Positions 9,170 through 64,000 of a DNA stretch of 64,000 nucleotides are shown piece by piece. The position numbers and the translations under genes are program-made. This stretch comes from Squalus acanthias. Its lineage: Eukaryota. Location: NCBI GenBank assembly GCA_030390025.1, contig CM059431.1:148182001-148246000 (forward strand), written 5' to 3'. Every line of letters begins with the position of its first letter. Positions within the stretch are counted from its first letter, which is position 1. The notes under the pieces are model-generated. The model was not told the origin of the DNA, did no database searches, and saw only the letters and a program-made list of their open reading frames with translations.

Positions 9170-10605
9170 CCCATCTACTCTAACCCCACCCAGTCCCTTC
9201 CACTGTAACCCCGCCCAGCCCCACCCACTCTAACCCCGCCCAGCCACTCCCACTCTAACCCCACCCAGTCCCTTCCTCTCTAATCCCTCCCAGCCCCTTC
9301 CACTCTAACCCCACTCAGCCCCTTCCACTCTAACCCAACCCAGTCCGTTCCACTGTAACCCCACCCAGCCCCTCCCACTCTAACCCCACCCAGCCCCTTC
9401 CACTCTAACCCCACCCAGCCCCTCCCACACTAACCCACCCAGCCCCTTCCACTCTAACCAAACACCGCCCCTTTCACTTTAAACAACACCCAGCCCCTCC
9501 AACTGTTACCAACCCAGCCCCTCCCAGTCTAACCCCACCCAACCCCTAACACTCTAACCCCGACCAGCCACTTCCACACTAACCCCGCCCAGCCCCTTTC
9601 AGCTCTAACCCCGCCCAGCCCATTCCACTATAACTCCGCCCAGCCTCACCCACTCTAACCCCACCCAGCAGCTTCCACTAGAACCCCGACCAGCCACTTC
9701 CACTCTAACCCCGCCCAGCCCCTTTCAGCTCTAACCCCGCCCAGCCCATTCCACTCTAACCCCACCCAGCCCATTCCACTATAACCCCGCCCAGCCCATT
9801 CCACTATAACCCCGCCCAGCCCATTCCACTATAACCCCGCCCAGCCCATTCCACTATAACCCCGCCCAGCCCCTCCCACTCTAACCCCACCCAGCCCCTT
9901 CCACTCTAACCCCGCCCAGCCCCTTCCACTCTAACCCCACCCAGCCCCTCCCACTCTAACGCTGCCCGGCCCCTTCCACTTTAACCCACCCAGCCCCTCC
10001 CAATCTAACTCCACCCAGCCCCTTCCACTCTATCCCCACCCAGCCACTCCCACTCTAACCCCGCCCAGCCCCTTCCACTTTAACCCACCCAGCCCGTCAC
10101 GCTCTCACCCCACCCAGCCCATTCAACGTTTCCCCCACCCAGCCACCCCCACTGTCCCACACCCAGCCCCTCCCATTCAAACACTATGCAAACCCTCCCA
10201 ATTTCCCCAACCAGCCCCTCCCACTCTCCCCCACCCAGCCCCTCCCACTCTAACGCTGCCCAGCCCCTTCCACTTTAACCCACCCAGCCCCTCCCAATCT
10301 AACTCCACCCAGCCCCTTCCACTCTATCCCCACCCAGCCACTCCCACTCTAACCCCGCCCAGCCCCTTCCACTTTAACCCACCCAGACCGTCACACTCAC
10401 ACCCCACCCAGCCCATTCAACGTTTCCCCCACCCAGCCACCCCCACTGTCCCACACCCAGCCCCTCCCATTCAAACACTTTGCAAACCCTCCCAATCTCC
10501 CCACCAAGGCCCTCCCACGCTCCCCCGCCCCTCCCACTCTCCCCCTCTCAGCCCCACCCACTTTTTCCCCACACTCAGCTCCTCCCACTCTCCCACACCC
10601 TGCCC
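9170..10605. repeat. ~25-bp C-rich minisatellite (CCACTCTAACCCCACCCAGCCCCTT) containing the telomeric hexamer TAACCC
   Basis: Dozens of tandem units. A more degenerate reverse-complement counterpart lies at 62815-64000. Confidence 0.9.
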
Positions 10606-11219
10606 ACACATGCTCTGACCCTCGTCAGTTAAGTTTCCAGGTCTTGAGCCATTATATCTGCACGGTCACTACAGCGGATTTAAAGTTAATCACTCTGATC
10701 CTCCACAGGGAATGATGTCGCTGGAACTACAGGTCTAAACAAACCTTCTACAGCAACAACCTTCTGAGTGTCAGCTGGCTAGCGATATTTCCATTGTTAA
10801 CACTCATTCACAAAGTAAACCGGTTTCGATATTCTTGCTGACCACAATCACTCCTAGATAGATCAGCCAGTTAGTCACAGTTAGTGTAGTTCCCGTCCCT
10901 TCACTTAAACTTATTGTGCAGCCTCCTGCCCCAAACTTCCCAGTTCACAACCTGATTGTGAGGTCTGATCTAACTGTGATGCGCAGTGTGAGGGTGAGGA
11001 AGGCTCTTTGATCTCACGGTTTGACCCGTCCAGCTAAAGGGGCCTCACTTTAATGAAACAATGTTTGGCAAAACCCTTGGGCTTCACTGAGGTTGCAGAT
11101 CCTTGATGTGCTAGAATACAACAAGAGGTTTCCATATGGCTACGACCCAGAGAAGAGGGTGTGTGGGTGATGTGCAGTGATGGGATTGTTTGCCTTCTTC
11201 CACTGATGTTAAGTAGTTG

Positions 11220-12075
11220 TCTACATTTACAGAAACAGGAGGAGGCCATTCAGCCCCTCCAGCCCGTTCCCAATTGAATTACATCATGACTGATCTGTAT
11301 CTTAACTCTGTATCCCTTAATAACCTGCCGAACATAAATCTATCACTCTAAGTTTTGAAATTTTCAATTAAGCCCCAGCTTCAACAGCATTTTAGAGGGA
11401 GACGGTTGCAAATTTCCACGACCCTTTGTTTAAAGAAGTGCTGCCTGGCATTACCCTTGAATTGCCGAGCTCTTTATTTAAGTTTATGTCCCCTTGTTCT
11501 GGACTCCCTCACCAGAGGAGATAGTTTCTCTATCTGACATATCAACTCCTTCAATTATCTTAAAAACCTCCAATAGATCACCCTTTATTTCCCTTCTATA
11601 TTCGAGATGATACAAGCCTAGTTCGTGCAATCTGTCCACATCATTTAACCCTCTAAGCCGTGGTATCATTCTGCCAAATCTATGCTGCACCCGCTCCGAT
11701 ACCAAAATATTCTTGCTGAGGTGAAGTGTCCAGAATTGAACGCAATACTCCAGATGGGGAGTAACCAGAGAGCAAAGAACTGTAAGGTAACTGCCAACCC
11801 TTTGTATTCCAGTCCCCTTGAAGTGAAGGCGAACATTTCATTCGCTTTTTAAATTATTATCTTATACCTCATCTCCTCTTTCCTGCACTATCCCCATATC
11901 CCTTTGATTCCCTTAATATTCAAAAATCTATCGATCTCTGTCTTGAATATACTCAACGACTGAGCCTCCACAGCCCTCTGGGGTAGAGAATTCCAAAGAT
12001 TCACCACCCTCTGAATGAAGAAATGTCTCCTCATCTCAGTCCTAAATGGCCGATCCCTTATTCTGAGACGGTGAC
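11220..12075 (-). mobile_element. Two adjacent decayed CR1-type 3' fragments
   Basis: ERVQHRFGRMIP...GDLLEVFKI (11484-11705) and RPFRTEMRRHFFIQRVVNLWNSLP (11888-12075). Mirrored at 61235-62190. Confidence 0.8.
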
Positions 12076-13046
12076 TCCCAAGTCTGTCTCTTTCTGTGTC
12101 TCCTGCTTTTGTCTCTCTCTCTCTTTCTCTGTCTTCCCCGCCTGTCGCCCCCACCTTGATCACCGTCTCTCTCTCATCCGTAGCCGAGCTGTCTGTCTCC
12201 CTGTCAGTCGGTCTCTCTCTTTGTCGCCCCATCTGTCTATCCTTCTCTGTGTCTACCCATCTGTCTCCCCGTCTGAATCACACTGTCTGTCTTTTTATCT
12301 GTCTCTCGCGTTTGTCTCTTTCTCTCTCTCCGTCTTCCCCGTCTGTCTCCCCTTCTCCCCGTTTGTCTCGCTCTCTGTCTGCCCCGCTGGTGTAACCCCA
12401 TCTATCTTCATCAATGTCTCTCCCTCCGTCCTTCAACCATCCCGGGTCTGTCTCTCGTACTTTCTGTCTCTCCCTCTGTGTCGTCTCCCCGTCTGTTCTC
12501 TATCTGTCTCTCCGCTATCTGTCTGCCCCATCTGTCTCTCTCTGTGTCACCCCGTCTGTCTCCCCCTCATCAGTCAACCCTGCTGGTCTGTCTTTCCTTC
12601 TCCCCCCCGCCCCCCCGCACCGTCTGTTTCCCCGTCTGTATAGCTCTAACGGTCTCAACCTGATCTGATCTCTTTCTTTCTTTCTTTCTCCCCGTCTGTC
12701 CCTCCTATCTCTCACGCTTTGTCTCCCTCCCGGCTGTCTTCCCTTCTGCCTCCTCCTGTCTGTCTCCCCCATCTGTCTCTCTCTGTTTCACACACATCTG
12801 TCTCCTCCCCATCTCTCTCCCCCTGTCTCTCTCTTACTCTCTGACGCCCTCACCGGTCCTCATCGTCTCCCTCCACCCCGTCAGTTTCCCCTGGTCTCTC
12901 TCTCTATCTCCACAGTCTGTCTCTCTCTCTCTCTCTCTCTCTGTCTTCACTATCTGTCACTTTTCCTCAGTCTTCACAGTCTGTCTCTCCACCAGCTGTC
13001 TCTCTCTGTCTCCCCCATTCTGTGTACTCCCTTTATCTCCATCAAT

Positions 13047-13166
13047 TGGCGGGGACGGGATACTGAATTGGAGGATCAGCCATGATCTCATTAAATAGTG
13101 GAGCAGGCTCGAAGGGCTGGATGGCCTACTCCTGCTCCTATCTTCTATGTATCTATGTATCTATGT
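13047..13166 (+). mobile_element. 120-bp 3'-tail-only insertion of the young CR1 family
   Basis: Matches the 3' end of the 16963-21861 element, ends in (CTATGTAT)n, is flanked by AAT/AAT and is absent at the paralogous site (~60255). Confidence 0.9.
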
Positions 13167-13739
13167 AATCTCTCTCCCCATCCTTATCCTGCCCCGCGTT
13201 CTGTCTCCCGCTCTCTCTGCCTCTCCAGCGTCGGTCTCCCCCCATCAGGCACCCCCGCTGGTCTGTCTCTCCTTCTGTCGCCCAAGCGTCAGTCTCCCCC
13301 GTCTCTATTCCCGTCTGTCTATCTTTGCTGTATCAAACCCGTCAGATCTCTTTCCTTCTACTTTAATCTCTCCTCTCACTCTCCCTTCCGTCTGTCTTAA
13401 TCTCTGTCTCCACCACCGTCTGTCGCTCTATGTGTCTCCCTGCATCTGTATCCCCGGTTTCTCACCCCCGTCTGTATCCCCCTACCAGCGTCCATCTCGC
13501 TCTCTCTGTCTCAATCCGTCTGTCGCAACACCATCTGTCTCTCTCGCTTTGTCTCCGCATCATCTGCCCGTCTGTTTCCTCGTCTGTCTCTCTCTCTCTC
13601 TCTCCCTCTCTCACTGTCTCCCTTCCCCGGTTGTCTCTCCATCTGACTCACTTGTTTTCTTCTCCTGTCTCCCCCATCGTCTGTCTCATCCGTCTGTCTC
13701 TCTCTCTCTGTCCAACTCCTGTCGGTCTTTCTATATGTC

Positions 13740-14070
13740 TTCTTTTCTTCTTAGGCAGTCCCTCGAAACCGAGGATGACTTGCTTCCACGTTAAAAATGA
13801 GTTTTCAGGTGACTGATGAGTCCATTCCGGGACCTACAGTCTCTGTCGCAGGTGGGGCAGACGATGGTTGAAGGGGCGGGTGGATGGTGTGTTTGGGTTG
13901 ACGTGTGCTCCTTGAGTTGCCTGCGCATGACTTCCGCTTGGTCCCGGAGAAGGGACTCGAGGTGTTCGTAGCATTCCCGGATGCTTCTCCTCCACTTTGT
14001 GCGGTCTTGGGCCAGGGATTCCCAGGTGTCAGTGGGAATGTTGCACTTTTTCAAGGAGGCTTTCAGGGTG
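13740..14070 (-). mobile_element. 5'-truncated RTE-clade LINE 3' end
   Basis: ORF 13791-14054 WESLAQDRTKWR...CPTCDRDCRSRNGLISHLKTH (C-terminal CCHH finger); AAG-type tail; 10-bp TSD TCTATATGTC at 13730-13739 and 14071-14080; empty site at ~59690. Confidence 0.85.
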
Positions 14071-14984
14071 TCTATATGTCATCCAGTGTCTGACTCCCCG
14101 CCGATCCTCCTGCACCCCACTCCCCGCCGCCGGTCTGTCGCTCTCTCTCTCTCTGTCTCCCCGCCATCTGTCTTGCTCTCTCTCTCTGTCCAACACCTGT
14201 CGGTCTTTCTTTTTGTCATCCAGCGCCGCTCCTCCTGCACCCCACTCCCCACCACCGGTCTGTCGCTTCCTCTCTCTGTCTCCACACCCAGCATCTGTCT
14301 CGCTCTCTCACTATTTCTCCCGGTCTGTCTCCAACAGTCTCTCCCCCTGTCCTTCTCCCGCTCCCGCTCTGTCTCTCGTGCTTCTCCCCTGTGTTGTTTC
14401 AAACAACCTTCTGTTGTCCACTTGAGCAGTACCGAATTAAGTCTTCTGGTTATATCATTTTATTCTTTAACTTCACATAAAAAGCAATTTGCAAGCAGAG
14501 TATAAACACAGATAGAGCACACGAACGTAGGCATGTATCCCTTCTCATGCTGCTTGAACAAAGAAAACAGCTTCTATTGATACACTATTCCCTTTATCAA
14601 ACTGGAAGCAGCCTTGCCTTATCTGGTAGTCTCCGGTCAAAAGCACCGTCCTTCAGCCAATGCACACAAGTTTACATTTCTAGTACAACAACATTCGGAG
14701 TTTACATTCAATGTACCGTCCTTCAATCGGCTTCTACTTCAACAACCTCTCGCAAAAATTGCAATGATGTGTGGTGGGGTATTTAAGTCTGACAATACTA
14801 TAAACATCCCAAGACCCGACTGCAATCTTCAACACTGGCTGTTGCTAAGTGAAGTCTGTATCTCTCTCTCTCTCTCTCTCTTTCTCTCCAATGATGCCAA
14901 CCACATTTTCCCATATTGAATGAACAAAACATGAACAACTTTCGGAAGCTGAATTAATCGAGGACCACATGCCAACTGATAGCT

Positions 14985-15260
14985 CATTCAAAGAGCCGGC
15001 ACAGGTTCGATGGGCCGAATGGCCTCCTTCTGTGCTCTATCATTCTATGATTTTCAGATCCGCCGAGCATCTACTCTGTCAAGCCCTGTAAGAATTTGAA
15101 ACGTTTCAGTGAGATCTCCTCTCATTCTTCAACATTCGAGGGAATATAGGCCGAGTCTACTCCATCTCTCCTCAAAGGACAATCCCCCCATCCCAGGAAC
15201 TAATCTAGTGATCCTTCGCTGCACTCCCGCGAAGGCAATTATGTATTTCCTTAGGTAAAG
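14985..15260. mobile_element. Small CR1/SINE tail (+) followed by an internal CR1 RT fragment (-)
   Basis: GATGGGCCGAATGGCCTCCTTCTGTG tail, then reverse complement of GAAGGATCACTAGATTAGTTCCTGGGATG. Mirrored at 58660-58925. Confidence 0.7.
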
Positions 15261-16019
15261 AGTCCTGTGTTAAGGGGCGGGGATTCCCTTTATGTTAGGG
15301 GCAACGGAAACGGTTCCTTAGATTCCCAGCTAAGGTACAGTGCAACGGAGATCTCTCTGCAGCGTACCTGACTCCTCACCGGGTGATTTTCATCCGTTCC
15401 CAGGTACGAGACATGCCGAAAGACCACCTCCCGTGAAAGTGACTCCCACTGAAGTTGAAAGATGAAAATGCGGAACAAGATAGGAAGAAAGAAATGGACA
15501 CAACCGGAAGATCAGGGCTTGTCAAGGGTGGGGTGGGGTGCGGTGGTTTGATGTTGGGGTGTAGTGGGTGCGGGTAGGGCTGCATTGGGTTGGGTGTAGG
15601 GGGTGCCGTGTGTGGGGTATGGGTGGGGAGCAGTGGAATGGAGTTGCAGTGGGAGGGGTGGAGTGGGGATTGGGCTGTGGTGTCAAAATCTTAACTTACA
15701 AACAACAGACAGTTAATCCTGGGAGGCAAGGTCAGACTGTGTGTCCTATGTGGGATGTTATGCATCATCTAATCTGACTAACTAAAAACGCTGTCTCAAA
15801 CTCTAATACAAGTTTGCGAGGAAATCGAAACTTGCGCAGGTCCAGTAAGACACAACCTATACATTAAACCCTTACATGTCTGCAGTAAAAACATACAATC
15901 AATTAAACACAGTATTATCCTGTCACAGCTTCATTCGCATAACCATAATTATTTTAGGCACCCTTAGATTCTAACAGCAGAATAACAATGCTGGACGATT
16001 TTGCTGTCCAACTCTGGCT

Positions 16020-16830
16020 TTGGAACTTCCTGCTCTGTGTGTGTATGTGGGGCTCAGTACCACACTGGTAGGGGCATCAGGCGAACTCATCAGAGGCCAT
16101 GGAGGCGCTGTGTGAGGGGCTCAGTACCACACCGGATGAAAGCAGACTAACACAGCTCAGGCTTCGGATGGAGCCTGGGCATTTCCTGCTCTGTCTGTGT
16201 GTGTGGGACTCAGTACCACACCGGGTATGAGATTAGATTCATTCAGCACAGGCCGGGGATGGAGCCTCGGCATTTCCTGCTCTGTCTGTGTGTGTGGGGC
16301 TCAGTACCACACCGGGTATGAGATTAGATTCATTCAGCACAGGCCGGGGATGGAGCCTGGGCATTTCCTGCTCTGTCTGTGTGTGTGGGGCTCAGTACCA
16401 CACCGGGTATGAGATTAGATTCATTCAGCACAGGCCGGGGATGGAGTCTGGGCGTTTCCTGATCTTTATGCATGTGAGTCTCAATACCACACCAGGTGTG
16501 AGATCAGCTCATTCAGCACAGGCCGAGGTTGGAGCCTCGGCCTTTCCTGCTCTGTGTGTGTGTGTGTGGTCTCAGTAACACACCGGGTGTGAGATCAGGC
16601 TAACTCAGCACAGGCCGGGGATGGAACCTGGGCCTTTCTTGCTCTGTGTGTGTGTGTGTGCTCAGTACCACACCGGGTGTGAGATCACGCTAACTCAGCA
16701 CAGGCCGAGGTTGGAGCCTGGGCCTTCAATGCTTTGTATGTGTGGGCTCATTTCCACACTGGGTGAGATCAGACTCACTCGGCACAGGCCGAGGATGGAG
16801 CCTGGGCCTTTCCTGCTACGTGTGGCTCAG
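16020..16830. repeat. ~91-bp tandem repeat (~9 units), possibly derived from a SINE head
   Basis: Unit GGGCTCAGTACCACACCGGGTATGAGATTAGATTCATTCAGCACAGGCCGGGGATGGAGCCTGGGC...; three near-identical units at ~16170-16450. Mirror at 57075-57895. Confidence 0.85.
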
Positions 16831-17062
16831 CTACTCACTGGATACTCAAACTGAGCCCGAATGGAATGAAATCTATACGTAGCAATGTATAAAATTCTGT
16901 TCAGAGAAGATGAAAACTCAGATACTTCAGATTGTGTTGCAGTGAATTGTTGTGGTGACAATACATAGATACATAGATACATAGAAGATAGGAGCAGGAG
17001 TAGGCCATCCGGCCCTTCGAGCCTGCTCCGCCATTTAATGAGATCATGGCTGATCCTCCAAT

Positions 17063-19930
17063 TCAGTATCCCGTCCCCGCCTTCTCTCCGTAACCCTTAA
17101 CCCCTTTTGCCTGTAGAAATACATCTAATTCCCTCTTAAATATATTTAATGAGCTGGCGTACACTGCCCTCTGTGGCAATGAGTTCCACAGGTTCACCAC
17201 CCTCTGAGTGAAGAAATTCCCCCTCATTTCTGTCCTAAATGGTTTAGCCCTTATCCTTAAATTATGTCCTCTAGTTCTGTTCTCACCCGCCAAGGGAAAC
17301 ATTCCTTCTGCATCTAGTCTGTCTAGACCTGTCAGAATTTTATACACTTCTATGAGGTCCCCTCTCAATCTTCTAAACTCCAGTGTGTACATCCCTAAAC
17401 TACATAGTCTCTCCTCATAGGTCAATCCCGCCATTCCTGGTATCAGCCTGGTGAATCTCCGCTGCACCCCCTCCATGGCAAGAACATCTTTCCTCAGATG
17501 AGGCGACCAAAACTGTACACAGTACTCGAGGTGTGGTCTCACCAGTGCCCTGTACAGCTGCAGCAAGGTATCCCTGTTCCTGTATTCCAACCCTTTTGCT
17601 ATGAAGGCCAGCATACCGTTTGCCTTCTTGATCGCCTGTTGCACCTGCATGCTCGCCTTCAGTGACTGGTGTACAAGAACACCCAGGTCTCTCTGTACTT
17701 CCCCCTCTCCCAATTTATTGCCATTTAAATAATAATTTGCCCTCCCGTTCCTGCACCCAAGGTGGATAACTTCGCACTTGTCCACATTATAGTGCATCTG
17801 CCATTTATCCGCCCAATCACCCAGTCTGTCCAAATCGCTCTGGAGCTTCCTGGTCTCCTCCTTTGAGCCCACCCCCCCTCCTAGTTTAGTGTCGTCTGCA
17901 AATTTGGAATTGCTGCATCCGACTCCCTGATCCAGGTCATTAATGTAAATTGTGAACAGCTGGGGACCCAGGACAGATCCCTGTGGTACCCCACTTGTTA
18001 CTGCCTGCCATTCAGAAAATGAGCCGTTTATTCCAACTCTCTGTTTTCTATCTGACAGCCAGTTCTCTATCCACGTCAATACTTTCCCCTTTATCCCATG
18101 AGCTTCAATTTTCCCTGCTAATCTTTTATGTGGGACCTTATCGAAGGCCTTTTGGAAGTCCAGGTACACCACATCTACTGGCTCTCCCCCATCTATTTTA
18201 CCAGTTACTCCCTCAAAAAATTCCAATAGATTAGTCAAGCACGATTTACCCTTTGTAAATCCATGTTGACTCTGTCCTATCCTGTCCCCATTTGCTAAGT
18301 GCTCCGCTATTTCATCCTTAATGATGGACTCCAGCATTTTGCCCACAACTGATGTAAGGCTTACAGGTCTGTAATTACCTGCTTTTTCCCTACCCCCCTT
18401 TTTGAATAGTGGGGTAACGTTAGCTACCCTCCAATCCATGGGCACTGTTCCCGAGTCTAATGAATTCTGAAAAATCATACTTAGTGCATCCGCTATCTCT
18501 AGGGCCACCTCCTTCAGCACCCTAGGATGCATGTTATCAGGCCCTGGGGATTTGTCCGCCTTCAATCCCTTTAGCTTCCTTAACACCATATCCTTAGAGA
18601 TATTGACTTGCGTCAGTTCCTCCTTTGCAAATGTCCCTATTTTTCCCGATATCCCAGGGAGGTTTTTTGTGTCTTCCTTCGTAAAGACTGACCCAAAGTA
18701 TGCATTTAGTTGGTCTGCCATTTCCTTATTTCCCGTTATATATTCCCCCGTATCTGACTGCAATGGGCCAACTTTGGTTTTCACCAGTCTTTTCCTCTTG
18801 ATATACTTATAAAAGCTTTTGGAGTTAGTTTTTATATTTTCCGCCAGCTTGCTTTCGTAAGCTATTTTGCCCCTCTTGATTAAGCCCTTTGTCCTCCTTT
18901 GCTCTATCTTAAACTGTTCCCAATCTTCCGCTCTGGCGCTTTTTTTGGCTATTTTATACGCCCTATCTTTGGATTTTATGCTGTCTCTAATTTCCCCTGT
19001 TATCCACGGTTGAGTCACCTTTTTAGATTTCCTTTTATGCCAGATTGGTATAAACAATTTTTGCAATTTTGTCTTTCTATCTTTAAATGCTTGCCATTGT
19101 TTATCTACCTCCAGTCCTCCCAGGAACGTTGTCCAATCAGACCTACTCAGTTCCCGTCTAATGGCATCATAATTCCCCTTGTTTAAATTCAGGACCTTAG
19201 TATCTGAGTCAATTTCTTCGCTCTCCATTTCGAGTGAGAAATCGATCATGTTATGATCGCTCTGACCCAAGGGTCCCCGTACAACAAGATTACTAATTAG
19301 TCCCTTCTCATTGCACAGTACCCAGTCCAATATAGCCTGTTCCCGAGTTGGTTCCTCGACATATTGATCCAGATAACCATCCCTTAAACACTCAAGGAAT
19401 TCCTCCTCCTCATTATTTTTACTGATTAGGCTATTCCAATCTATATGTAAGTTAAAGTCACCTATGATGACAGCTGTGCTCTTATTGCACGCTTCTCTAA
19501 TTTCCCTCGTGATGCCCTCCCCAACCTCTATTTTACTATTTGGAGGCCTATATACCACTCCTATTAATGTTTTTCGCCCCTCGCTATTTCTTAGCTCCAC
19601 CCATATAGATTCTGTATTAACTGAGTTAATATCCTTCCTTTCAATTGCATTTATCCCTTCTTTTACCAGCAATGCTACCCCTCCTCCCTTTCTTTTTTGT
19701 CGATCCTTCCTAAATACTGAATACCCCTGTATGTTAAGCTCCCAGCCCTGCTCACCCTGCAACCATGTTTCCGTAATCCCAATTAGATCATAATTATTAA
19801 CCTCTATTTCCACAGCTAATTCATCTACCTTGTTCCTGATGCTTCTCGCATTAAGGTATAAAACCCTCAGGCTTTTTTTATGCTCACATTTTTTATGAAT
19901 TAGTTTGGCCCTTTGTTTTTTGTTCCTCAC
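17063..19930 (-). CDS. CR1 ORF2: APE endonuclease + reverse transcriptase (true start uncertain; frame stays open upstream into the end of ORF1)
   Basis: 955-aa uninterrupted frame with YLNARS, ITETW, GDFN, SDH, NYRPVSLTS, QHGF, DFQKAFD, GVPQGSVLGP and FADD motifs. The track start at 19930 is GTG. Confidence 0.96.
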   Translation of the reverse strand: MRNKKQRAKLIHKKCEHKKSLRVLYLNARSIRNKVDELAVEIEVNNYDLIGITETWLQGEQGWELNIQGYSVFRKDRQKRKGGGVALLVKEGINAIERKDINSVNTESIWVELRNSEGRKTLIGVVYRPPNSKIEVGEGITREIREACNKSTAVIIGDFNLHIDWNSLISKNNEEEEFLECLRDGYLDQYVEEPTREQAILDWVLCNEKGLISNLVVRGPLGQSDHNMIDFSLEMESEEIDSDTKVLNLNKGNYDAIRRELSRSDWTTFLGGLEVDKQWQAFKDRKTKLQKLFIPIWHKRKSKKVTQPWITGEIRDSIKSKDRAYKIAKKSARAEDWEQFKIEQRRTKGLIKRGKIAYESKLAENIKTNSKSFYKYIKRKRLVKTKVGPLQSDTGEYITGNKEMADQLNAYFGSVFTKEDTKNLPGISGKIGTFAKEELTQVNISKDMVLRKLKGLKADKSPGPDNMHPRVLKEVALEIADALSMIFQNSLDSGTVPMDWRVANVTPLFKKGGREKAGNYRPVSLTSVVGKMLESIIKDEIAEHLANGDRIGQSQHGFTKGKSCLTNLLEFFEGVTGKIDGGEPVDVVYLDFQKAFDKVPHKRLAGKIEAHGIKGKVLTWIENWLSDRKQRVGINGSFSEWQAVTSGVPQGSVLGPQLFTIYINDLDQGVGCSNSKFADDTKLGGGVGSKEETRKLQSDLDRLGDWADKWQMHYNVDKCEVIHLGCRNGRANYYLNGNKLGEGEVQRDLGVLVHQSLKASMQVQQAIKKANGMLAFIAKGLEYRNRDTLLQLYRALVRPHLEYCVQFWSPHLRKDVLAMEGVQRRFTRLIPGMAGLTYEERLCSLGMYTLEFRRLRGDLIEVYKILTGLDRLDAEGMFPLAGENRTRGHNLRIRAKPFRTEMRGNFFTQRVVNLWNSLPQRAVYASSLNIFKRELDVFLQAKGVKGYGEKAGTGY

Positions 19931-52939: not shown

Positions 52940-53330
52940 ATGCTCGCCCTCGCCGCCCGCCCGTTCTCAGGGTAACCAGGCCTCCCGCTGCTGCCGACAT
53001 CCTGACTCTGGCCTTGCGCCGCCACTCGCTTCTGGGAAAGGAGAAACCTCAATTTTGGCAATCGACCCAGGGGGAAGCCCCCGATAGAGAGAGAGAGAGA
53101 GAGAGTGAGTGCGACAGACGCCATCTTTGTGCGGGGCGCCATTTGCACGATCTTTGAACGGGGCCTGTTCCGCGTTTTTGCTCATTGAGCGGCGCCGCCA
53201 TCTTTGTCTCGGGCAGGGCTGCCGCCATCTTCGTGCGGGCGGGAGTTGCGCTGCGTTAGGAGGCGCGTTTGGTGTCTGCCATCTTTGTCTCGGGCACTGC
53301 TGCCTTTCCAGAGGGGCCTGACAGATGGAC
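52940..53330. promoter_or_regulatory. GC/CpG-rich element with clustered YY1-like motifs, copy 3
   Basis: Repeated GCCGCCATCTT motifs. Confidence 0.5.
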
Positions 53331-53457
53331 GCGCCACTGACAAGGTGGCCAGTGGAGACAGTGTGTGAGTGAGTGTGTTAATGTCCCCAGATCACTGGCG
53401 GCTCACTCAAAGTATCAGGCCCAGGGAACTCTCAGGCTGCAATGTCTCCGCTTCTTC

Positions 53458-54359: not shown

Positions 54360-55994
54360 CTGTGAGGAAGGGAAATCAACAGGGAAATTATACATCAGGC
54401 TGCGAGCAAGAACAGCAGTTTGATGGAAATCGGGGAGAAATCTGCGAATCAATCGCGACATTAAATGATATAATCTAATTCTATTACCTGTGGAACTGAA
54501 TACAGGGTTTATTGTAAGAATAATCGGGAATAAATTGTTGAATCAATCAATGAAAAGGTGGTACATGCAACAGGAATGTAACCAATGTTTGATCAATGAG
54601 AGATGAAATGGTAGACCTGCCTTTAGCCCAGCGGTCAAAAGCTCCGCCCGAGGTACCAGGGACTAAAAGGACCAGAACCTCTCAGGAAGCCTTCGTGTCC
54701 CGGGATCAGTCAGCATTTGGAGAGCTACAATACGATTCAGTGCCCCTTGTGTTAGGGAGGAGGAAATCCGGCTTGGACTCATGCACCTGGTTGGAATATC
54801 CTTTATATTAGAGAACTGAAAATGAAAAGAACAGCAAAATACAGAAACTGCAATCTTGGCGTTCAATAATTACAGGCAATTGTATTTAAAATGTACGGCT
54901 GTAATATGCGAATGCTAAGATAATTAATAAAAGTGCACTGCAGTTATAAAGATAACCGGGCTGCAAGAAATCTTTTGAAGATTTAGTTTTCTACATTTAT
55001 GCTGAAATACACAATTTCTAGCTCATTGAAAGGAAGATTTTCCAAATAACATAAATAGTGGGAACTGAATTAAAAAAGATAGTTATTATGGACCAAGTAA
55101 TATCCGACTAAATGCATTTATTAGCATCATAATCAGGCGAATTATCCAACAGGCAAAATGCCGCCGAATGTATTTGTAAAGTATCTGAACACAAATGGAA
55201 TAGATTTATCCTTGTACTTTTTCACCTGTTGGTTTCCAACTTGTGCAGAGAATATTAGTCGAGAAAATATGAAAGGATTTTCTTACCCTCAGTACTTCAG
55301 TTACAATCAGCTGGGATTGATTATCCTGCAGTACAGCAGAAGGCAATAGAGAATCACTCTGGGTCTCACTGAGAGATCCACTGAACTGTGACAGACGGGC
55401 ATGGGATCCAATTGTAAATTCAAAACAAAGATTGGAAATAAACGCGTTGAAATATGTCTGAGTGAACGTTTTTGAGAATGTAAATTATCCTTGTAATCCT
55501 TTCTACCCATCAGAAGCAGTGCCACGAATGCAGAGCTGGAGATGGTGGGAAAGGAGACATTGACTGGAACTGAATGATTCGCGGATATTTAAGACATTTA
55601 AAGATGTGGGTGTGATCTGCCAGGATTTGTTCCTGTGACTCTGTGTCAGTAACCACGCCGAGCATTCAGTGAAAACAAAAGCAAATTACTGCGAATGTTG
55701 GAAATCTGAAATAAGCACAGAAAAAGTTTTCAATACTCAGCAGGTCAGGCAGCTTCTGTGGAGAGAGGGAGAGTTAACGTTTCAGGTCGATGATCTTTCG
55801 TCATTTGGTGAAAAGTCTCCTAAACCAAGACAACATTCATCGGATCTGTTACAAATGTTCAGTGCAGAGAACAGAATGAAATTCGTTAAATAAAGTGTGT
55901 CGTCTAATATAGTTTCTTGAGTTGAATATAGAACAATTGAATATTGGTAATACTGTAACACATTCAGAATCAATAGCCGAGAGCAGCGCGGATT

Positions 55995-56500
55995 GGATGG
56001 AGAATGACAAGGAGAGAAATACAGTAAAACATGATTTATGGAATGAATAGCTGGATACAGGCACTTACCAGGGACACCAACAGTAGCGAAGCGCAGGGGA
56101 ATCAGTGACAAGAACAGTAATACAGTGAAACATGATTTACAAAATTAATAGTTGAATACAGGCTCTTACCAGGGACACCAACAGTAGCGAAGCGCGGGGG
56201 AATCAGTGACAAGAATAGTAATACAGTGAAACATGATTTACAGAATTAATAGTTGGATACAGGGACTTTCCAGGAACACCAACAGTAGCGAAGCGCGGGG
56301 GAATCAGTGACAAGAATAGTAATACAGTGAAACATGATTTACAGAATTAATAGTTGGATATAGAGACTTACCAGGGACACCAAAATAGTGAGGGTTGGGG
56401 GGCGGGATAATTGACAAGACCATTAATACAGTTAAGCATGATTTACAGAATTATTAGTTGGATACAGAGACTTTCAAGGTACATCAATAGCAGCGAGAAT
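55995..56500 (-). repeat. Intronic exon-end/donor tandem repeat (5 units)
   Basis: CTTACCAGGGACACCAACAGTAGCG units on the plus strand at ~56065, 56165, 56265 and 56367, plus a diverged unit at ~56470. Confidence 0.8.
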
Positions 56501-56655
56501 GCGACTGTCTTTTTAAACAACTCTTGCTTTAACAAAGATGCAACAACTTGAAAGACAGAATTCAATTAATAACTGAATTTGCCACGGTAAACAGGAATTA
56601 TAATATTACAGTGTAACATGGTTTATAGAATTAAATACTGGACATAGATTCTTAC

Positions 56656-56767
56656 TAGGAACACCAACAGCAGCGAGGAGCGGATAGAAAATCTGTTGTA
56701 TATCATTAACTATTCTCATCATCCTCATCTGTTCAAGATAACTTTCGAAAGCGCTGCTGGAACCCAT
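56656..56767 (-). CDS. Orphan class A GPCR copy B, coding exon 1
   Basis: MGSSSAFESYLEQMRMMRIVNDIQQIFYPLLAAVGVP + A|GTAAG; 112 nt; in frame with exon 2 (337 aa total). Confidence 0.82.
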
Positions 56768-57074
56768 GCCTTCCCTCTGTAAGAGGCTGGTGGTCTTTGT
56801 GCGGGAGGCAGCGCGCTGATTGTGTGAGGTCACACAGCGAAGGGATCTCCTTATTTATAGAAGAGAAAAATCCTCGAGTGACATAATGAGGCCGAACTGT
56901 AACTGACATTAATTACAGTCACTGAACAAACAGACTCATTGAACCATTCTCACCACAGCAATTCACTGCCACACAATCTGAAGTAGCTGAGTGTTCATCT
57001 TCTCTGAACAGAATTTTATGCATTGCTAGAAATAGATTTCATTCCATTCGGGCTCAGTTTGAGTAACCAGTGAA

Positions 57075-57895
57075 TAGCTGAGCCACACGGAGCAGGAAAG
57101 GCCCAGGCTGCATCCCCGGCCTGTGCCGAAAAATTCAGATCTCACCTGGTGTGGTGCTGATCCCCACAAACACAAAGCATTGAAGGCCCAGGTTACAACC
57201 TCGGCCTGAACTGAGTTAGCCTGATCTCACACACGGTGTGGTACTGAGCCCACACACAAACACACACAAAGCATGGAAGGTCCAGGCTACAACGTCGGCC
57301 TGTGCTAAGTGAATCAAATCTGACACCCGGTGTGATACTGAGCCCCAGATACATAGAGCAAGAAAGGCACAGGCTCCAACCTCGGGCTGTGCTGAATGAG
57401 CTGATTTCACACCCGGTGTGGTACTGAGCTCCACACATACAGCGCAGGAAAGGCCTAGGCTCCATCCCCGGCCTGTGCTCAGTGACTCTAATCCCACACC
57501 CGGTTTGGTCCTGAGCCCCGCACACACAGACAGAGCAGGAAAGGCCCAGGCTCCATCCCCGGCATGTGGTAAGTGAATCTAATCCCACACCCGGTGTGTT
57601 CCTGAGCCCCACATACACAGACAGAGCAGGAAAGGAAAGGCTCCATCCCCGGTCTCTGCTGAGTGATCTGATCTCACACCCGGTGTAGTAACTAGCCCCA
57701 CAAACAGAGCAGGAAATGCCCAGGCTCCATCTCCGGCCTGAGCTGTGTTAGCCTGATGTCACCCAGTGTGATACTGAGCCCCTCACACAGTGCAGGAAAG
57801 GGCTAGGCTCCATCCATGGCGTCTGCTGAGTTAGCCTGATCCCGCACCCAGTGTGGTACTGAGACCCACATACACACACAGAGCAGGAAGTTCCA
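57075..57895. repeat. ~91-bp tandem repeat, mirror copy
   Basis: Reverse complement of 16020-16830, with more heterogeneous units. Confidence 0.8.
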
Positions 57896-60800
57896 AAGCC
57901 AGAGTTGGACAGCAAAATCGTCTGGCATTGTTATTCTGCTGTTAGAATCTAGGCGTGACTAAAATATTTATGGTTATGCGAATGAAGCTGTGACAGGATA
58001 ATACTGTGTTTAAATGCTGTATGTTTTTACTGCAGCCATGTAAGGGTTTAATGTACAGGTTGTGTCTTACTGGAACTGCGCAAGTTTCGATTTCCTCACA
58101 AACTTGTATTGGAGTTTGAGACAGCGATTTTAGTTAGTCAGATTAGATGATGCATAACATCCCACATAGGACACACAGCATGACCTTGCCTCTCAGGATT
58201 AGCTGTCTGTTGTTTGTAAGTTAGGATTTTGAAACCGCAGCCCAATCCCCACTCCACACCTCCCATTGCACCTCCATTCCACTGCTCCCCACCCATACCC
58301 CACACTCGGCATCCCCTACATCCCACCCAATGCAGCCCTACCCCCACCCACTGCAACCCTACCCCCAACCAACCGAACCCCACCCCACCCTTGACAAGCC
58401 CTGATCTTCCGGTTGTGTCCATTTATTTCTTCCTATCTTGCTCCGCATTTGCATCTTTCAGCTTCAGCGGGAGCCTCTTTAACGGGAAGTGGTCTTTCGC
58501 CATGAAAAGTACCTGGAACGGACGAAATTCACCCGGTGAGGAGTCAGGTACGCTACAGAGAGATCTCAGTTACACTCTACCTTAGCTGGGAGTCTAAGGA
58601 ACCGTTTTCGAGCCCCTAACATACAGGGAATCCCTTCCCCTTAACACAGGCATCTTTACCTAAGGAAATAAATAATTCCCTTCGAAGGAGTGCCGCGAAG
58701 GTTCACTAGATTGGTTCCTGGGATGGGGGGATTGTCCTTTGGGGACAGATTGAGCAGAGTCGGCCTATATTCCCTCGAATTTTGAAGAATGAGAGAAGCT
58801 CTCACTGAAACTTTTCAAATTCTTACAGGGCTTTACAGAGTAGATGCTCGGAAGATCTCAGAATCAAAGTATGATAGAGCACAGAAGGAGGCCATTCGGC
58901 CCATCTAACCTGTGCCGGCTCTTTGAAAGAGCTATCAGTTGGCATGTGGTCCTCGATTAATTCAGCTTCCGAAAGTTGTTCATGTTTAGTTCATTCAATA
59001 TGAGGAAAAGTGTTTGGCATCATTGGAGAAAGAGAGAGAGAGAGAGAGATACAGACTTCACTTAGCAACAGCCAGTGTTGAAGATTGCAGTCGGGTCTTG
59101 AGATGCTTATAGTATTGTCAGACTGTAAACATCCCACCACACACCATTGCAATTTTTAAGAGAGATTGTTGAAGTACAAGCCGATTGAAGGACGGTACAT
59201 TGAATGTAAACTCCGAATGTTGATGTATGAGAAAGGTGAACTTGTGTGCATCGGCTGAAGGATGGTGCTTTTGACTGGAGATTACCCGATCAGGCAAGGC
59301 TGCTTCCAGTTTGCTAAAGAGAATAGTGTATCAATAGAAGCTGATTTCCTTGTTCAAGCAGCAGGGACGCATGCCTACTTTCGCGTGCTCTATCTGTGAC
59401 TATACTCTGCTTGTAAATTGCTTTTTATGTGAAGTGAAAGAATAAAATGATATAACCAGAAGACTGAATTCGGTACTGCCCAAGTGGACAACAGAAGGTT
59501 GTTTAAAACAACACAGGGGAAACACAGCGAGAGACAGAGCGGGAGGGGGAGAAGGACAGGGGGAGAGACTGTTGGAGACAGACCGGGAGAGATAGAGAGC
59601 GAGACAGATGACGGGTGTGGAGACAGAGAGAGAGCGAGACAGACCGACTGCGGGGAGCGGGGTGCAGGAGTAACAGCGCTGGATCACACATAGAAAGACC
59701 GACAGGAGTTGGACAGAGAGAGAGCGAGACAGACGGAGGAGACAGACGGTGGGGGAGACAGGGGGAGACAACACGTCAGTCAGATGGAGAGACAACCAGG
59801 AAAGGGAGACAGCGAGAGAGAGAGGGAGAGAGAGAGACAGACGGAGGAGACAGACGGTCAGACTGATGCGCAGACAGAGTGAGAGAGACAGATTGTGTTG
59901 AGACAGATGGAATGAGACACAAAGAGCGAGATGGACGTTGGTAAGGGATACAGACGGGGCTGAAAAACGGGGGATACAGATGTAGGGAGACACATAGAGC
60001 GACAGACGGGGTGGAGACAGAGATTGAGACAGACGGAAGGGAGAGTGAGAGGAGAGACATTAGGTGAGAAGGAAAGAGATCAGACGGGTTTGAGACAGCA
60101 AAGATAGACAGACGGGGAGAGACACGGGGGAGACATACGGTGGGGCGCCAGAAGGAGAGACAAACCAGCAGGGGAGACTGATGGGGGAGACCGACGCTGG
60201 AGAGGCAGAGAGAGCGGGAGACAGAACCCGGGGCAGGATAAGGATGGGGAGAGAGATTGATGGAGATAAAGGGAGTACACAGAATGGGGGAGACAGAGAG
60301 AGACAGCTGGGGGAGAGACAGACTGTGAAGACAAAGGGAAAGTGACAGAATGTGCAGACAGAGAGAGAGAGAGACAGACTGTGGAGACAGATAGAGAGAG
60401 AGACCAGGGGTAACTAACGGGATGGAGACAGACGAGGAGGCCCGCTAAGGGAGTCAGAGAGTAAGAGAGAGACTGGGGGAGAGAGATGGGGAGAAGAAAG
60501 ATTGTGTGTGACACAGAGAAAGACAGATGGGGGAGACAGACAGGAGGAGGCAGGAGGGAAGACAGACGGAAGGGAGACAAAGCGTGAGAGAGAGGAGGGA
60601 CAGACGGGGAGAAAGAAAGAGATCAGATGGGGTTGAGACCGATAGAGATAGACAGAAGGGGAAACAGACGTTGGGGGGAGAGAAGGAAAGACAGACCAGC
60701 AGGTTAGACTGATGGGGGCAGACAGACGGGATGAGAAAGAGAGAGAGAGACAGATGGGGCAGACAGATGGCGGAGAGACAGATAGAGAACAGACGGGGTG

Positions 60801-62814
60801 ATGACACAAAGGGAGTGGCAGACGTGTTGAGACAGACGCGGGGGAGAGAGAAAGAGCGAGAGACAGACCCGGGTGGTTTAAGGACGGAGGGAGAGACATT
60901 GATGAAGATAGATGGGTTTACACAAACGGGGCAGACAGAGAGCGAGACAGACGGGGAGAAAGAGTGGGAGACAGACGGGGAAGACGGGGATAGAGAAAGA
61001 GAAAAAAACGAGAGACAGATAAAAAGACAGAATGGGTGATTCAGTCGGGGAGACAGATGGGGAGACACAGAGAAGGAGAGACAGATGGGGCGACAAAGAG
61101 AGAGACAGACTGACAGGGAGACAGACAGCTCGGCGGCGGATGGGGAGAGAGACGGGGATAAAGGTGGGGGAGACAGGCGCGGTAGACAGCGAGAGGGAGA
61201 GACAAAAGCAGCTGACACAGAAAGAGACAGACTAGGGATTCACCGTCTCAGAATAATGGATCGGCCATTTCGGAATGAGATGAGGAGAAATTTCTTCACA
61301 CAGAGGGTGGTGAATCTTTGGAATTATCTATCTAAGTGGGCTGTGGAGGCTCAGTCGTTGAGTATATTCAAGACAGAGATCGATATATTTTTGAATATTA
61401 GGGGTATCAAGGGATATGGGGATAGTGCAGGAAAGTGGAGAGGAGGTAGAATATCAGCCGTGATGTTATTGAATGGCGGAGCAGGCTCGAAGGGCCAAAT
61501 GACCAACTCCTGCTCCTATTTCTTATGTTCTTATGTTCTTATGAACAAGGGAGACAGGTGTGAGAAATAATTTAAAAAGGGAATGAAATGTTGGCCTTCA
61601 CCTCAAGGGGACTGGAATACCAAGGGTTGGCAGTTTCCTTACAGTTCTTTGGTCTCTGATTACTCCCCATCTGGAGCATTGCGTTCAATTCTGGACACTT
61701 CACCTCAGCAAGAATATATTGGTCTCGGAGCGGGTGCAGCGTAGATTTGGCAGAATGATACCACGGCTTAGAGGGTTAAATGATGAGGACAGATTGCACG
61801 GACTAGGCTTGTATTACCTCGAATATAGAAGTGGAATAAAGGGTGATCTAATGGAGGATTTGAAGATAATTAAAGGAGTTGATATGTTCGATAGAGAAAC
61901 TATCTCCTCTGGTGAGCGAGTCCAGAACAAGGGGGCATAGAGTTAAATATAGAGCTAGACAATTCAGGGGTAATGCTGGGCAGCATTTCTTCACACAAAG
62001 GGTAGTGGAAATTTGCAAGTTTCGCCCCCTAAAAAGTTGTTGAAGCTGGGGCTCAATTGAAAATGTCAAAACTTAGATTGTTAGATTTATGTTCGGCATG
62101 TTATTAAGGGTTATAGAGTTAATATACAGATCAGCCATGATGTAATTGAATTGGGAACTGTCTGGAGGGGCTGAATGGCCTTCTCCTGTTTCTGTAAATG
62201 TAGACAACTACTTAACATCAGAGGAGGAAGGCAAACAATCCCATCACTGCGCATCACCCACACACCATCTTCTCTGGGTGGTATCCACATGGAAACCTCT
62301 TATTGTATTCAAGCACATCAAGTGATTGCAACCTCAGTGAAGCCCAAGGGTTTTGCCAAACACTGTTTCATCAAAGTGAGGCCCCTTTAAGGGAACGGGT
62401 CAAACCGTGAGTTCAAAGAGCAAGCCTCACCGTCACACTGCGCATCACAGTGAGATCAGACGTCACAATCAGGTTGTAAACTGGGCAGTTTGAGGCAGGA
62501 GGCTGCACAACCAGTTTAAGTGAAGGGAAGGGAACGGCACTAACTGTGACTAACTGGCTGATCTATCTAGGAGTGATTGTGGTCAGTTGAATATCGAAAC
62601 CGGTTTACTTTGTGAAGGGTCTGTTAACAATGGAAATATCGCTAGCCAGCTGGCACTCAGAAGGTTGTTGCTGTAGCAGGTTTGTTTCGACCTGTAGTTC
62701 CAGCGACATCATTCCCTGTGGAGGATCAGAGTGATTAACTTTAAATCCGCTGTAGTGACCGTGCAGATATAATGGCATAAGACCTGGAAACTTAACTGAC
62801 GAGGGTCAGAGCAT

Positions 62815-64000
62815 GTGTGGGCAGGGTGTGGGAGAGTGGGAGGAGCTGAGTGTGGGGAAAAAGTGGGTGGGGCTGGGTGGGGGAGAGTGGGAGGGGCGGG
62901 GAGCGTGGGAGGGGATGATGGGCTTTGAGTGGAAGGGGCAGGTTGGTGTTAAGTGGGAGGGTCTAGGTGAGGGAGAGTGGGAGAGCCTGGGTGGGGAGAT
63001 TGGGGGAGTTTGGGTAGGGTTAGACTGGGGGGGCTGGGTGGGGGCAGAGTGGGATGGGTTAGGTGTAGGGAGAGTGTGACGGGCGAGGTGGATTAGAGTG
63101 GGAGGGACTTTGTGGGGAAGAGTGGGAGGGTTTGTGTGTGGTGGGAGGTCCTGGTTTGGGGAAGATTGGGAGGGGCTGTTTGGGGAAGAGTGGGAGCGGC
63201 TGGGTGGGGAAGCGTGGGAGAGGATGGGTGGGGTTAGAGTGGAAGGGCCTGCTGGTGCAGAATTGGGAGGGGCTGCGTGGGGTTAGATTGGAAGGTATTG
63301 TGTGGGGATGGAGTGGGAGGGGCTGGGTGGGGGTGAAGTGGGGGGCTGCGTGTGGGAGAGTGGGAAGGGCTGGGTGGTGAGAGTGGGAGGGGCTGGGTGT
63401 GGGGAGAGTGGGAAGGGCTGGGTGCTGAGAGTGGGAGTGGCTGGGTTTGGGGTTAAATTACGAGGGGCTGGGTATGGGGAGAGTGAGAGAGGCTAGTTGG
63501 TGTTAGAGTGGTATGTGATCGGTGGGGTAGAGTGGGAGGTGCTGTGTGGGAGGAGAGTGTTGTTGGATGGGTGGGGGCAGAATTGGAGGGGCAGGGTAAG
63601 TTCAGAATCGGAGGGGCTGGGTGGTGTTAGAGTGGTATAGGATGAGTGGGGGAGAGTGGGAGGTGCTGCGTGGGGGAGAGTGGGATGGGATGTGTGGGGG
63701 AGAGTGGAAGGGTCTGGGTCAAGGGAGAGTGGGAGGGGCTGGTTGGGGTAGAGTCTGAGGGTTGGGTGCGGGGAGTGTACGAAGAGCTGGGTGGGATTGA
63801 GTGGGAGGGGCTGGGTTTGGTTATGGTAGGAGGGATGGGTGGGATTAGAGTGAGAGCGGCAGCGTGTGGTTAGAGAGGGAGGTGCTGGGTGGGCTAGGAG
63901 TGGGAGGTCCTGGGTGGAGTTAGAGTGGGAGGGGCAACGTGTGTTTCTAGTGATAGGTTCTGTGCGGGTTTGGTGCGAGAGAGGCTGTTTGGTGTTGCAG
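62815..64000. repeat. Degenerate G-rich minisatellite (GGGGCTGGGTGGGGTTAGAGTGG-like)
   Basis: Mirror of 9170-10605. Confidence 0.8.

Follow-up and report, generated by a model that had tools for sequence, protein, structure and literature searches.

Two convergent open receptor genes of a GPR139-related shark family in an inverted duplication of Squalus acanthias

A 64-kb stretch of the Squalus acanthias genome (the window; all coordinates are positions within it) carries one receptor gene twice, in mirror image, and raises the question of what has kept both reading frames open and what kind of receptor they encode. Self-BLAST gave collinear minus-strand blocks running from ~9.2-9.5 kb/63.9 kb (outer) to ~37.1 kb/45.1-46 kb (inner), with the innermost satellite match of the mirror chain at 39874-40187. 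This agrees with the first-pass annotation, which had described a left arm of ~31 kb and a right arm of ~19 kb mirrored around a ~5 kb spacer. A 30-32-bp satellite harbours the inner ends of both arms. The layout is as follows (here and below, strand is given in brackets where assigned).

1-2568 (-): third, partial 3′-flank module lacking the receptor; GC-rich element, 40-bp AT-rich repeat, CR1 relic
9166-40187: left arm, ~31.0 kb with later insertions of ~12 kb counted in (self-BLAST, global alignment)
40188-45077: unduplicated spacer, ~4.9 kb (self-BLAST, satellite analysis)
45078-64000: right arm, ~18.9 kb, open at the window edge (self-BLAST, global alignment)

The arms differ in length because left-only insertions total ~12 kb, and since the right arm runs past the window end, the outer limit of the duplication lies outside view. 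The GPCR-less partial copy at 1-2568 had been omitted from the first-pass annotation.

Globally aligned, the arms are 87.3% identical over 18,260 columns (satellites counted), with a non-coding mismatch of 8.7% across 12,816 aligned bases. Segmental duplications are multi-kb and about 90% identical; the arms are multi-kb, non-allelic and oppositely oriented, and they include introns and flanks. They are an old, DNA-level inverted segmental duplication, in which the copied unit spans 19 kb or more and the receptor genes stand tail to tail. Eight arm-specific insertions lie in the left arm and none in the right (p=0.008), alongside one decayed element common to both:

13047-13166 (+): left-only young CR1 3′ end, 120 bp
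13700-14175: left-only insertion, 476 bp, with flanking duplication and an end that we take to be RTE-like
16963-21861 (-): left-only full-length CR1-type LINE with a 6-bp target duplication, ending 92 bp 5′ of the left TATA box; ORF1 (20005-20955, esterase-like) and ORF2 (17063-20029, endonuclease and RT) are both open
24248-24924: left-only MITE-like insertion bounded by terminal inverted repeats; it sits in the intron, 56 bp 5′ of the acceptor, where ~65 bp of the right intron are missing from the left
26941-30070 (+): left copy of a decayed CR1 relic common to both arms, mirrored at 49370-52394
30212-31837: left-only TG..CA element, solo-LTR-like, 4-bp target duplication
33794-34776 (+): left-only young CR1 copy, 5′-truncated, 6 mismatches in 992 columns
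35029-35796: left-only MITE-like insertion bounded by terminal inverted repeats and a 3-bp target duplication
37069-39873: left-only insertion of a MITE-like piece and a CR1 relic, interrupting the 32-bp satellite

A neutrally faster left arm was considered and rejected, the CR1 relic of the third copy being 7.1% diverged from that of the left arm and 6.8% from that of the right. That the arms are two haplotypes or a fold-back join, and thus an assembly artefact, is scarcely credible. Satellite at the inner ends and a repeat-rich region would suit such an error, but a fold-back join would give near 100% identity and haplotypes differ far less than 8.7%. The arms are instead set apart by that mismatch, by 73 indels and by the unique spacer, and the right-arm empty sites are clear at six of the eight insertions. 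Because of the non-coding difference and the one-sided insertions, a mis-assembled haplotype pair can be set aside and the duplication taken as real, as had been proposed.

Both receptor genes comprise a 112-nt coding exon 1, a phase-1 GT..AG intron and a 902-nt coding exon 2, and they are convergent. Each encodes 337 aa without an internal stop, and the two proteins are 88% identical.

16109-16817: 91-bp tandem array 5′ of the left gene, with the LINE now between array and gene
21862-22045 (+): left promoter and 5′ leader, TATAAATA at 21954 (+)
22046-22157 (+): left coding exon 1, 112 nt
22158-24980 (+): left intron, phase 1, GT..AG, 2823 nt
22329-22722 (+): tandem copies (~4 x 106 bp) of a unit holding the end of exon 1 with its splice donor, left intron
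24981-25882 (+): left coding exon 2 through TGA; Pfam 7tm_1, 68.8 bits
53458-54359 (-): right coding exon 2 through TGA; Pfam 7tm_1, 82.9 bits; GPCR fold in the AlphaFold model
54360-56655 (-): right intron, phase 1, GT..AG, 2296 nt
56005-56496 (-): tandem copies (~5 x 101 bp) of a unit holding the end of exon 1 with its splice donor, right intron
56656-56767 (-): right coding exon 1, 112 nt
56768-56951 (-): right promoter and 5′ leader, TATAAATA from 56859 (-)
57090-57889: 91-bp tandem array, ~230 bp 5′ of the right TATA box

The start ATG lies at 22046 (left) and 56767 (right), and the two promoter/leader segments differ by 9 mismatches in 184 positions, with no indels. The TATA box, ATG, phase-1 intron and full frame attributed to both convergent genes are thus present in each; tblastn found no further GPCR within the window. 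Contigs from three presumed-RNA runs and one DNA run were compared with the right gene. Most are 90-95% alike, as paralogues are, and many match the SINE that lies at about 55.6-55.9 kb. No contig spans the exon 1-exon 2 junction, and some extend from exon 2 into the intron.

Both genes encode class A (rhodopsin-like) GPCRs. Their Pfam 7tm_1 scores stand well above the curated cut-off of 30.5 bits. The right exon 2 model (which lacks the start of helix 1) has seven helices and helix 8 at a pLDDT of 84.7, and all 50 of the 50 Foldseek matches listed for it are class A GPCRs. With receptor positions assigned from motifs, the class A marks found are N1.50 (N39), D2.50 (D68), C3.25 (C98), the loop-2 cysteine (C177) and a D-R-aromatic motif (D122-R123-F124). 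The CWxP and NPxxY prolines are missing from both copies, which read LWAM in helix 6 and NTGIY in helix 7, and likewise from the shark family consensus. In sequence alignment, GPR139 keeps the CWxP proline and lacks that of NPxxY, so their absence is compatible with class A.

The closest kin of the pair among the matches listed are other shark genes. In the search of protein clusters, 2579 of 4042 candidates fell at E<=1e-10, which makes the family a very large one. All 120 matches listed are shark ‘probable G-protein coupled receptor 139’, an automatic NCBI/UniRef name met as a database label and not as a described family; 119 of the 120 are 72-78% identical over the full second exon, and none listed exceeds 78%. 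The two copies are sisters nested among such elasmobranch paralogues (Heptranchias, Heterodontus, Pristiophorus, Leucoraja), with a tree support of 0.997 and, in a second, quick tree scored by SH-aLRT only, of 100. The trees include 18-26 rows marked ‘rep’ and 7 marked ‘invert’, where ‘invertebrate’ is a guess from the look of the sequence. In many relatives the N-terminus is extended and repeats an N-x-T motif, a feature missing from both copies. The pair had been described as one cell of a lineage-expanded array evolving by birth and death. Membership of the family stands, by identity and nesting, and birth and death is a pattern that we infer.

Despite the label, the kinship with GPR139 is distant. 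Human GPR139 (PDB 7VUG-7VUJ, 9M42) is the best solved-structure match by sequence (E 7.6e-8, 35 bits) and the second-best fold match to the right-copy model (22% identity, TM 0.70). In the same library, proteins of the sister clades reach higher scores against GPR139 than the pair does (70 bits for P0244, 53 for P0247), and judged by similarity the pair are not orthologues of GPR139/GPR142. GPR139 is, moreover, one gene rather than a repertoire. Two vertebrate orphan clades and the invertebrate-looking proteins score 69-108 bits against the pair, in a library different from that of the GPR139 search. The P0244 type occurs in coelacanth, sharks, fishes, amphibians and reptiles and the P0247 type in amphibians and sturgeon, and the closest named bony-vertebrate relatives of the pair are a conserved amphibian/sturgeon orphan receptor. 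Moderate tree support places the shark family in an orphan lineage of its own, akin to the GPR139/142 group; conserved relatives occur in amphibians, in sturgeon and in further bony vertebrates.

Passages of two published papers describe non-mammalian GPR139/142-related orphans in coelacanth, gar and fishes, named ‘GPR210A/B’ (PMC6504862) and ‘NMOGPR’/‘Orphan 139-like’ (PMC5207463). In taxon range, the sister clades P0244 and P0247 fit this description. The available text of PMC6504862 has no occurrence of ‘elephant shark’ or ‘cartilaginous’, and the passages on GPR210 and NMOGPR mention no shark expansion. GPR165, a candidate for the identity of the family, was dropped, as PMC6504862 groups it with GPR83.

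Are both frames open by selection, as the first-pass annotation had concluded? Their retention exceeds chance when set against indels that arose after the duplication: 64 frameshifting indels occur in 12,816 non-coding bases and none in 1011 coding bases (P(0)=0.006). The simulated chance of no stop in the coding sequence is P=0.016-0.049. Under neutrality both frames would be open with a probability of about 1e-4 to 3e-4, a test that is inflated because the pair was noticed for being intact. The further argument from ruined neighbours is weaker than it was put: tblastn recovers the common CR1 relic in 6 pieces with 6 stops in one arm and in 7 pieces with 10 stops in the other, but such lesions can be older than the duplication, so broken relics alone are no proof of selection. 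Nor is the overall dN/dS of 0.78 significantly below 1 (Fisher p=0.33).

Constraint is concentrated in the intracellular half. With the halves split at the helix midpoints of the structure model, pN between the copies is 0.043 inside and 0.092 outside (p=0.008), the inner value being lower than that of the flanks (p=0.0006). Differences between the copies fall on only 5 of the 120 sites conserved in the family and on 26 of the 179 variable ones (p=0.004). The pN/pS ratio at family-conserved codons, 0.31, falls short of significance (p=0.06). The same polarity marks the shark family, with an entropy of 1.22 in the extracellular and 0.46 in the intracellular half (p=2e-11), and is absent from two sister clades (0.40/0.60 and 1.16/1.08).

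Synonymous divergence complicates this picture. Since pS also drops in the intracellular half, from 0.122 outside to 0.051 (p=0.04), dN/dS is about 0.8 in both halves. Gene conversion may therefore contribute, as synonymous divergence is low where amino acids are conserved. A stronger form of this explanation is that conversion among hundreds of paralogues is mainly what kept the frames open, so that one or both copies need not function. Besides the joint drop of synonymous and non-synonymous divergence, it draws on the clustering of coding differences (35 vs 22.5 expected, 0 of 10,000 shuffles; non-coding blocks clustered in 0 of 6), on 17 of 55 changed codons with two or three base differences, and on a ~113-140-nt contig over the third intracellular loop that is identical or nearly so in all three presumed-RNA runs, from two organisms. 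Yet the overall dS of 0.091 matches the flank divergence, the longest stretch of identity, 75 nt, is no longer than chance allows (P=0.22), and the pS contrast is built on 6.5 vs 15 synonymous differences. The first two points led us to reject whole-gene conversion between the arms; conversion as the main preservative we consider unlikely.

Another possibility is that both copies, or at least the left, were recently relaxed and are becoming pseudogenes, their open frames recording past selection. The dN/dS of 0.78 would fit, as would a left protein branch of 0.10, double the 0.05 of the right, the one-sided insertions, with the LINE close to the left TATA box and the MITE near the left acceptor, and two left-copy changes at the cytoplasmic start of helix 6: R246P, where 118 of 118 relatives have R, and K248N, where 117 of 118 have K. 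The right copy has its own oddity, L297P, with P in none of the 118. Against relaxation, derived changes number 13 left and 7 right (p=0.26), and the TATA box, splice sites and frame are all intact. The departures at conserved sites, 4 and 3 in the pair, fall inside the family range, 19 and 36 of the 118 relatives having as many or more. We hold this explanation to be quite unlikely. Still, with two near-invariant residues changed and a 4.9-kb LINE 92 bp from its TATA box, the verdict of selection on both copies may no longer hold for the left. Judged from sequence, the right copy is probably functional; the left may either still work or have just begun to die.

The best joint explanation, to which we assign a probability of about 0.7, is inverted duplication of a shark-family receptor, selection after duplication and a role in a repertoire. 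One gene became two when the unit was copied, after which selection, with or without conversion, would have purged frameshifts and stops. The G-protein-facing half would have been held near constant while the extracellular half diverged. The family would then most likely serve as a repertoire in which many receptors with differing pockets meet related ligands and feed one common G-protein pathway. Its kinship with peptide receptors suggests that the ligands are peptides or resemble amino acids. A hypervariable extracellular half is the pattern of a ligand-recognition repertoire under birth and death.

Clusters of odorant receptors (OR), TAAR, V1R, MRGPR and FPR are birth-and-death GPCR repertoires. 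The shark family resembles them as a large lineage-specific family with local duplication, a variable ligand half and a constant inner half, but it belongs to a different class A branch, and an intron interrupts its genes in the region of the first helix. A literature search, with most subscription journals outside its scope, listed no paper on the shark ‘GPR139-like’ expansion, and the files covered in the supplements of PMC13188829 (8), PMC8455134 (12 of 24) and PMC10115646 (all but one) held no match to it. According to the passages available, sharks have very few OR, ORA and TAAR genes, the catshark only a handful (PMC11979771), and the whale shark genome paper describes GPCRs as relatively scarce in cartilaginous fishes (PMC8455134).

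The duplication itself is an ordinary birth-and-death step. The pair offers a snapshot of it: siblings 9% apart, with the ligand side about twice as diverged as the signalling side, one of which may be dying. In databases the family counts distinct shark proteins by the thousand, filed under a misleading automatic name. More tentatively, and with rather more doubt than confidence, these genes might form an undescribed cartilaginous-fish-specific repertoire of hundreds per genome, a further chemosensory or immune sensor system in animals regarded as GPCR-poor. Its source would be an orphan peptide-type GPCR that is still a single conserved gene in amphibians, and its ligand side would have diversified by selection and patchwork conversion. 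If such a sensory or immune repertoire exists, how sharks detect chemicals with few classical receptors would become a directly testable question.

Self-BLAST of the window returned a collinear chain of minus-strand blocks running inward from ~9.2–9.5 kb/63.9 kb to ~37.1 kb/45.1–46 kb, with an extra satellite piece at 39874–40187. This bears out the mirrored arms of about 31 and 19 kb around a ~5-kb spacer described in the first-pass annotation: the left arm (9166..40187) measures ~31 kb, the right arm (45078..64000) ~19 kb before running off the window end, and the spacer is unique and 4.9 kb long. Aligned globally, the arms are 87.3% identical over 18,260 aligned columns. In 13 non-coding blocks (12,816 aligned bases), picked by hand with satellites mostly excluded, they mismatch at 8.7% and differ by 73 indels, 64 of which are not multiples of three. 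Given such divergence and a unique spacer, a fold-back or a mis-assembled haplotype pair, the latter raised by the annotation against its own reading, can be ruled out for practical purposes from the sequence. In the left arm, a 350-bp block at 26593–26944 lies in the opposite orientation to its counterparts in the right arm and in a third, partial and receptor-less copy of the unit at 1–2568.

Each arm carries one two-exon class A receptor gene, at 22046–25882 (+) in the left arm and 53458–56767 (–) in the right. As previously annotated, both retain a TATA box (TATAAATA, ~92 bp before the ATG), a phase-1 intron and a full frame of 337 amino acids. The intron is of the GT..AG type, coding exon 1 has 112 nt and exon 2 has 902 nt; neither frame has an internal stop, and the copies differ from each other at 73/1014 bases and 40/337 residues. 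The promoter block is slightly conserved between copies (9/184 mismatches, p = 0.04). Pfam 7tm_1 is the sole family match of the receptor proteins. An AlphaFold model covering right exon 2, built on a 58-sequence alignment, has a pLDDT of 84.7 with the expected helices present, and a Foldseek search with it finds class A receptors, chiefly those for peptides, GPR139 ranking second. The proteins carry the motifs DRF, LWAM and NTGIY and, like the family consensus, lack the prolines usually present in helices 6 and 7.

Selection on both receptors had been proposed from the broken TE relics nearby, an argument that is weak because relic lesions can predate the duplication; the proper control is the set of indels that arose between the arms. 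That measure predicts ~5 frameshifts for the 1011 coding bases, which have none (P = 0.006, or 0.015 when scaled to the 73 coding differences), while simulated substitutions left both frames stop-free in 1.6–4.9% of trials. The combined chance of frames without frameshift or stop is ~1e-4 to 3e-4, a figure that does not allow for the pair having been noticed for being intact. Constraint on the amino acids is partial: overall dN/dS is 0.78 (dS 0.091, dN 0.071; Fisher p = 0.33). With the receptor split at the helix midpoints of the AlphaFold model, pN between the copies is 0.043 in the inside (G-protein-facing) half versus 0.092 in the outside (ligand-facing) half (p = 0.008), the inside value lying below the flank rate (p = 0.0006), yet pS is likewise lower inside (0.051 versus 0.122, p = 0.04). 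Changes fall at 5/120 family-conserved versus 26/179 variable sites (p = 0.004), and coding differences are clustered along the gene, with clustering absent from all six non-coding controls. In our reading, purifying selection acts on the signalling half, and on the ligand half change is either free or favoured. Patchy gene conversion probably contributes to the inside/outside pattern; two sequences cannot tell selection from conversion.

Individual substitutions hint at decay in either copy. Two changes in the left protein, R246P and K248N, lie where helix 6 begins on the cytoplasmic side; R is found there in 118/118 and K in 117/118 relatives (118 of the 120 listed matches, two apparent fused gene models being excluded). 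The right protein has L297P in helix 7, with P in 0/118. The left branch is twice as long as the right in both trees, but the difference in derived changes (13 left, 7 right) is not significant. Departures at conserved sites number four in the left copy and three in the right; at least four are found in 19/118 relatives and at least three in 36/118, and the two copies are no outliers.

Insertions are unevenly distributed, with eight in the left arm (13044–39873) and none in the right (45078–61600; two-sided p = 0.008 if equally likely). Six have a clean empty site in the right arm and a flanking duplication in the left:

Left arm only: 120-bp CR1 end
Left arm only: 476-bp insertion
16963–21861, minus strand, left arm only: full-length 4.9-kb CR1
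Left arm only: TG..CA solo-LTR-like element
Left arm only: 1-kb CR1
Left arm only: MITE-like element

An intronic MITE insertion in the left arm was accompanied by ~65 bp of loss, and the last of the eight sits within satellite. Five stretches of at least 60 bp (62–166 bp) occur only in the right arm; four belong to tandem repeats, and the fifth is a CR1 tail that reads as a deletion in the left arm. On the CR1 relic, compared with the third copy, no substitution-rate asymmetry between arms was found. The full-length CR1 is young, with ORF1 and ORF2 both open, ~six 75–76-bp repeats at its 5′ end and two near-identical truncated copies close by, one of them the 1-kb CR1 (99% identity); it is oriented head to head with the promoter of the left receptor, ending 92 bp upstream of the TATA box.

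Further features of the window are as follows:

40217–41453, plus strand: short cysteine-/tryptophan-rich reading frames
42928–44224, minus strand: disrupted envelope-like gene within the spacer, split into two or more pieces (44224–43367 and 43335–42928)
25990–26420, 52928–53345 and 2184–2565: GC-rich element, four AAGATGGC words per copy
22329–22722 and 56005–56496: tandem 101–106-bp copies of the exon-1 end in the receptor introns, with GTAAG donor-like sites

The larger envelope-like piece matched clusters at 0.94–0.95, 28–44% of them with Baculo_F, a resemblance we treat as a lead of low recognition value; the pieces gave no Pfam match and no PDB sequence match. The 40217–41453 frames resemble fragments of a further decayed glycoprotein gene, and two tested pieces had no Pfam match. 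The GC-rich element, ~100 bp downstream of the receptor stop codon, is promoter-like, and its copies together hold 12 of the 13 AAGATGGC words in the window; the word matches the YY1 site. The third copy corresponds to the receptor 3′ flank module, ~7% from either arm, and joins unrelated sequence exactly at the start of this element; such a module may spread without the receptor. Transcripts spliced from the tandem exon-1-end copies would take in a stop located ~50 nt inside the left intron, and the GTAAG sites could accordingly serve as decoy donors.

Human GPR139 is the best solved-structure match of the receptors, yet at 35 bits, and two vertebrate clades are closer; by similarity the receptors are not GPR139. 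The P0247-type clade (21 matches) comprises amphibians and sturgeon, with 66–74% identity among amphibians; the P0244-type clade comprises coelacanth, sharks, fishes, amphibians and reptiles. No mammals occur among the named matches listed for either. Both are conserved non-mammalian orphan GPCRs labelled ‘probable GPR139’ in databases, and are mislabelled. Two P0244-type matches bear the name TMEM183A, which suggests that TMEM183A is a neighbouring gene. A quick IQ-TREE of 59 rows, without GPR139 itself, placed the shark family with unnamed divergent members (88) as sister to the amphibian/sturgeon clade (90), both supports below the tool threshold of 95, and the P0244 clade as next sister to that group (99). 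Published names for non-mammalian orphans in the GPR139 neighbourhood are GPR210A/B (PMC6504862) and NMOGPR and Orphan 139-like (PMC5207463); judged by taxon range, our two clades may correspond to some of them.

The first-pass annotation had also placed the pair in a lineage-expanded family evolving by birth and death. With right exon 2 as query, 2579 proteins (90% clustering) among 4042 candidates match at E ≤ 1e-10, and 115 proteins remain at E ≤ 1e-30 with 50% clustering. The best 120 of the 2579 matches are all shark proteins and carry the label ‘probable G-protein coupled receptor 139’ (own count: 51 Heterodontus, 48 Heptranchias and 21 Pristiophorus), 119 at 72–78% identity and one at 54%; Squalus acanthias is absent among these 120. 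A tree of 117 of them is made up largely of blocks specific to one species, with 35, 50 and 11 rows and supports of 0.91, 0.58 and 0.74, a structure that suggests ongoing turnover. In one run, DNA contigs span exon and intron in numerous divergent variants; they yield no copy number but fit a large set of intron-bearing copies that arose through DNA duplication. We found no published account of the shark expansion in the largely open-access literature searched. Published work stresses few olfactory receptors in sharks (PMC11979771) and few GPCRs in cartilaginous fishes (PMC8455134). The locus adds a new example of a known process, and databases already list its family under an automatic name.

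In an alignment of 118 shark paralogues, the extracellular half has a column entropy of 1.22, against 0.46 for the intracellular one (p = 2e-11); the corresponding values are 0.40 versus 0.60 in one sister clade (20 proteins) and 1.16 versus 1.08 in the other (46 proteins). Whereas the conserved single gene of a sister clade keeps its pocket, the expanded shark family varies the pocket and keeps the G-protein face, a pattern that, judged from sequence, is typical of a repertoire. Given its relatedness to GPR139 and to receptors for peptides, the family would most likely bind peptides or amino-acid-like molecules. As a guess at role, chemosensation and immune or barrier sensing are equally possible, and some other function is only slightly less so. 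As a repertoire, the shark family would let many ligands converge on one output.
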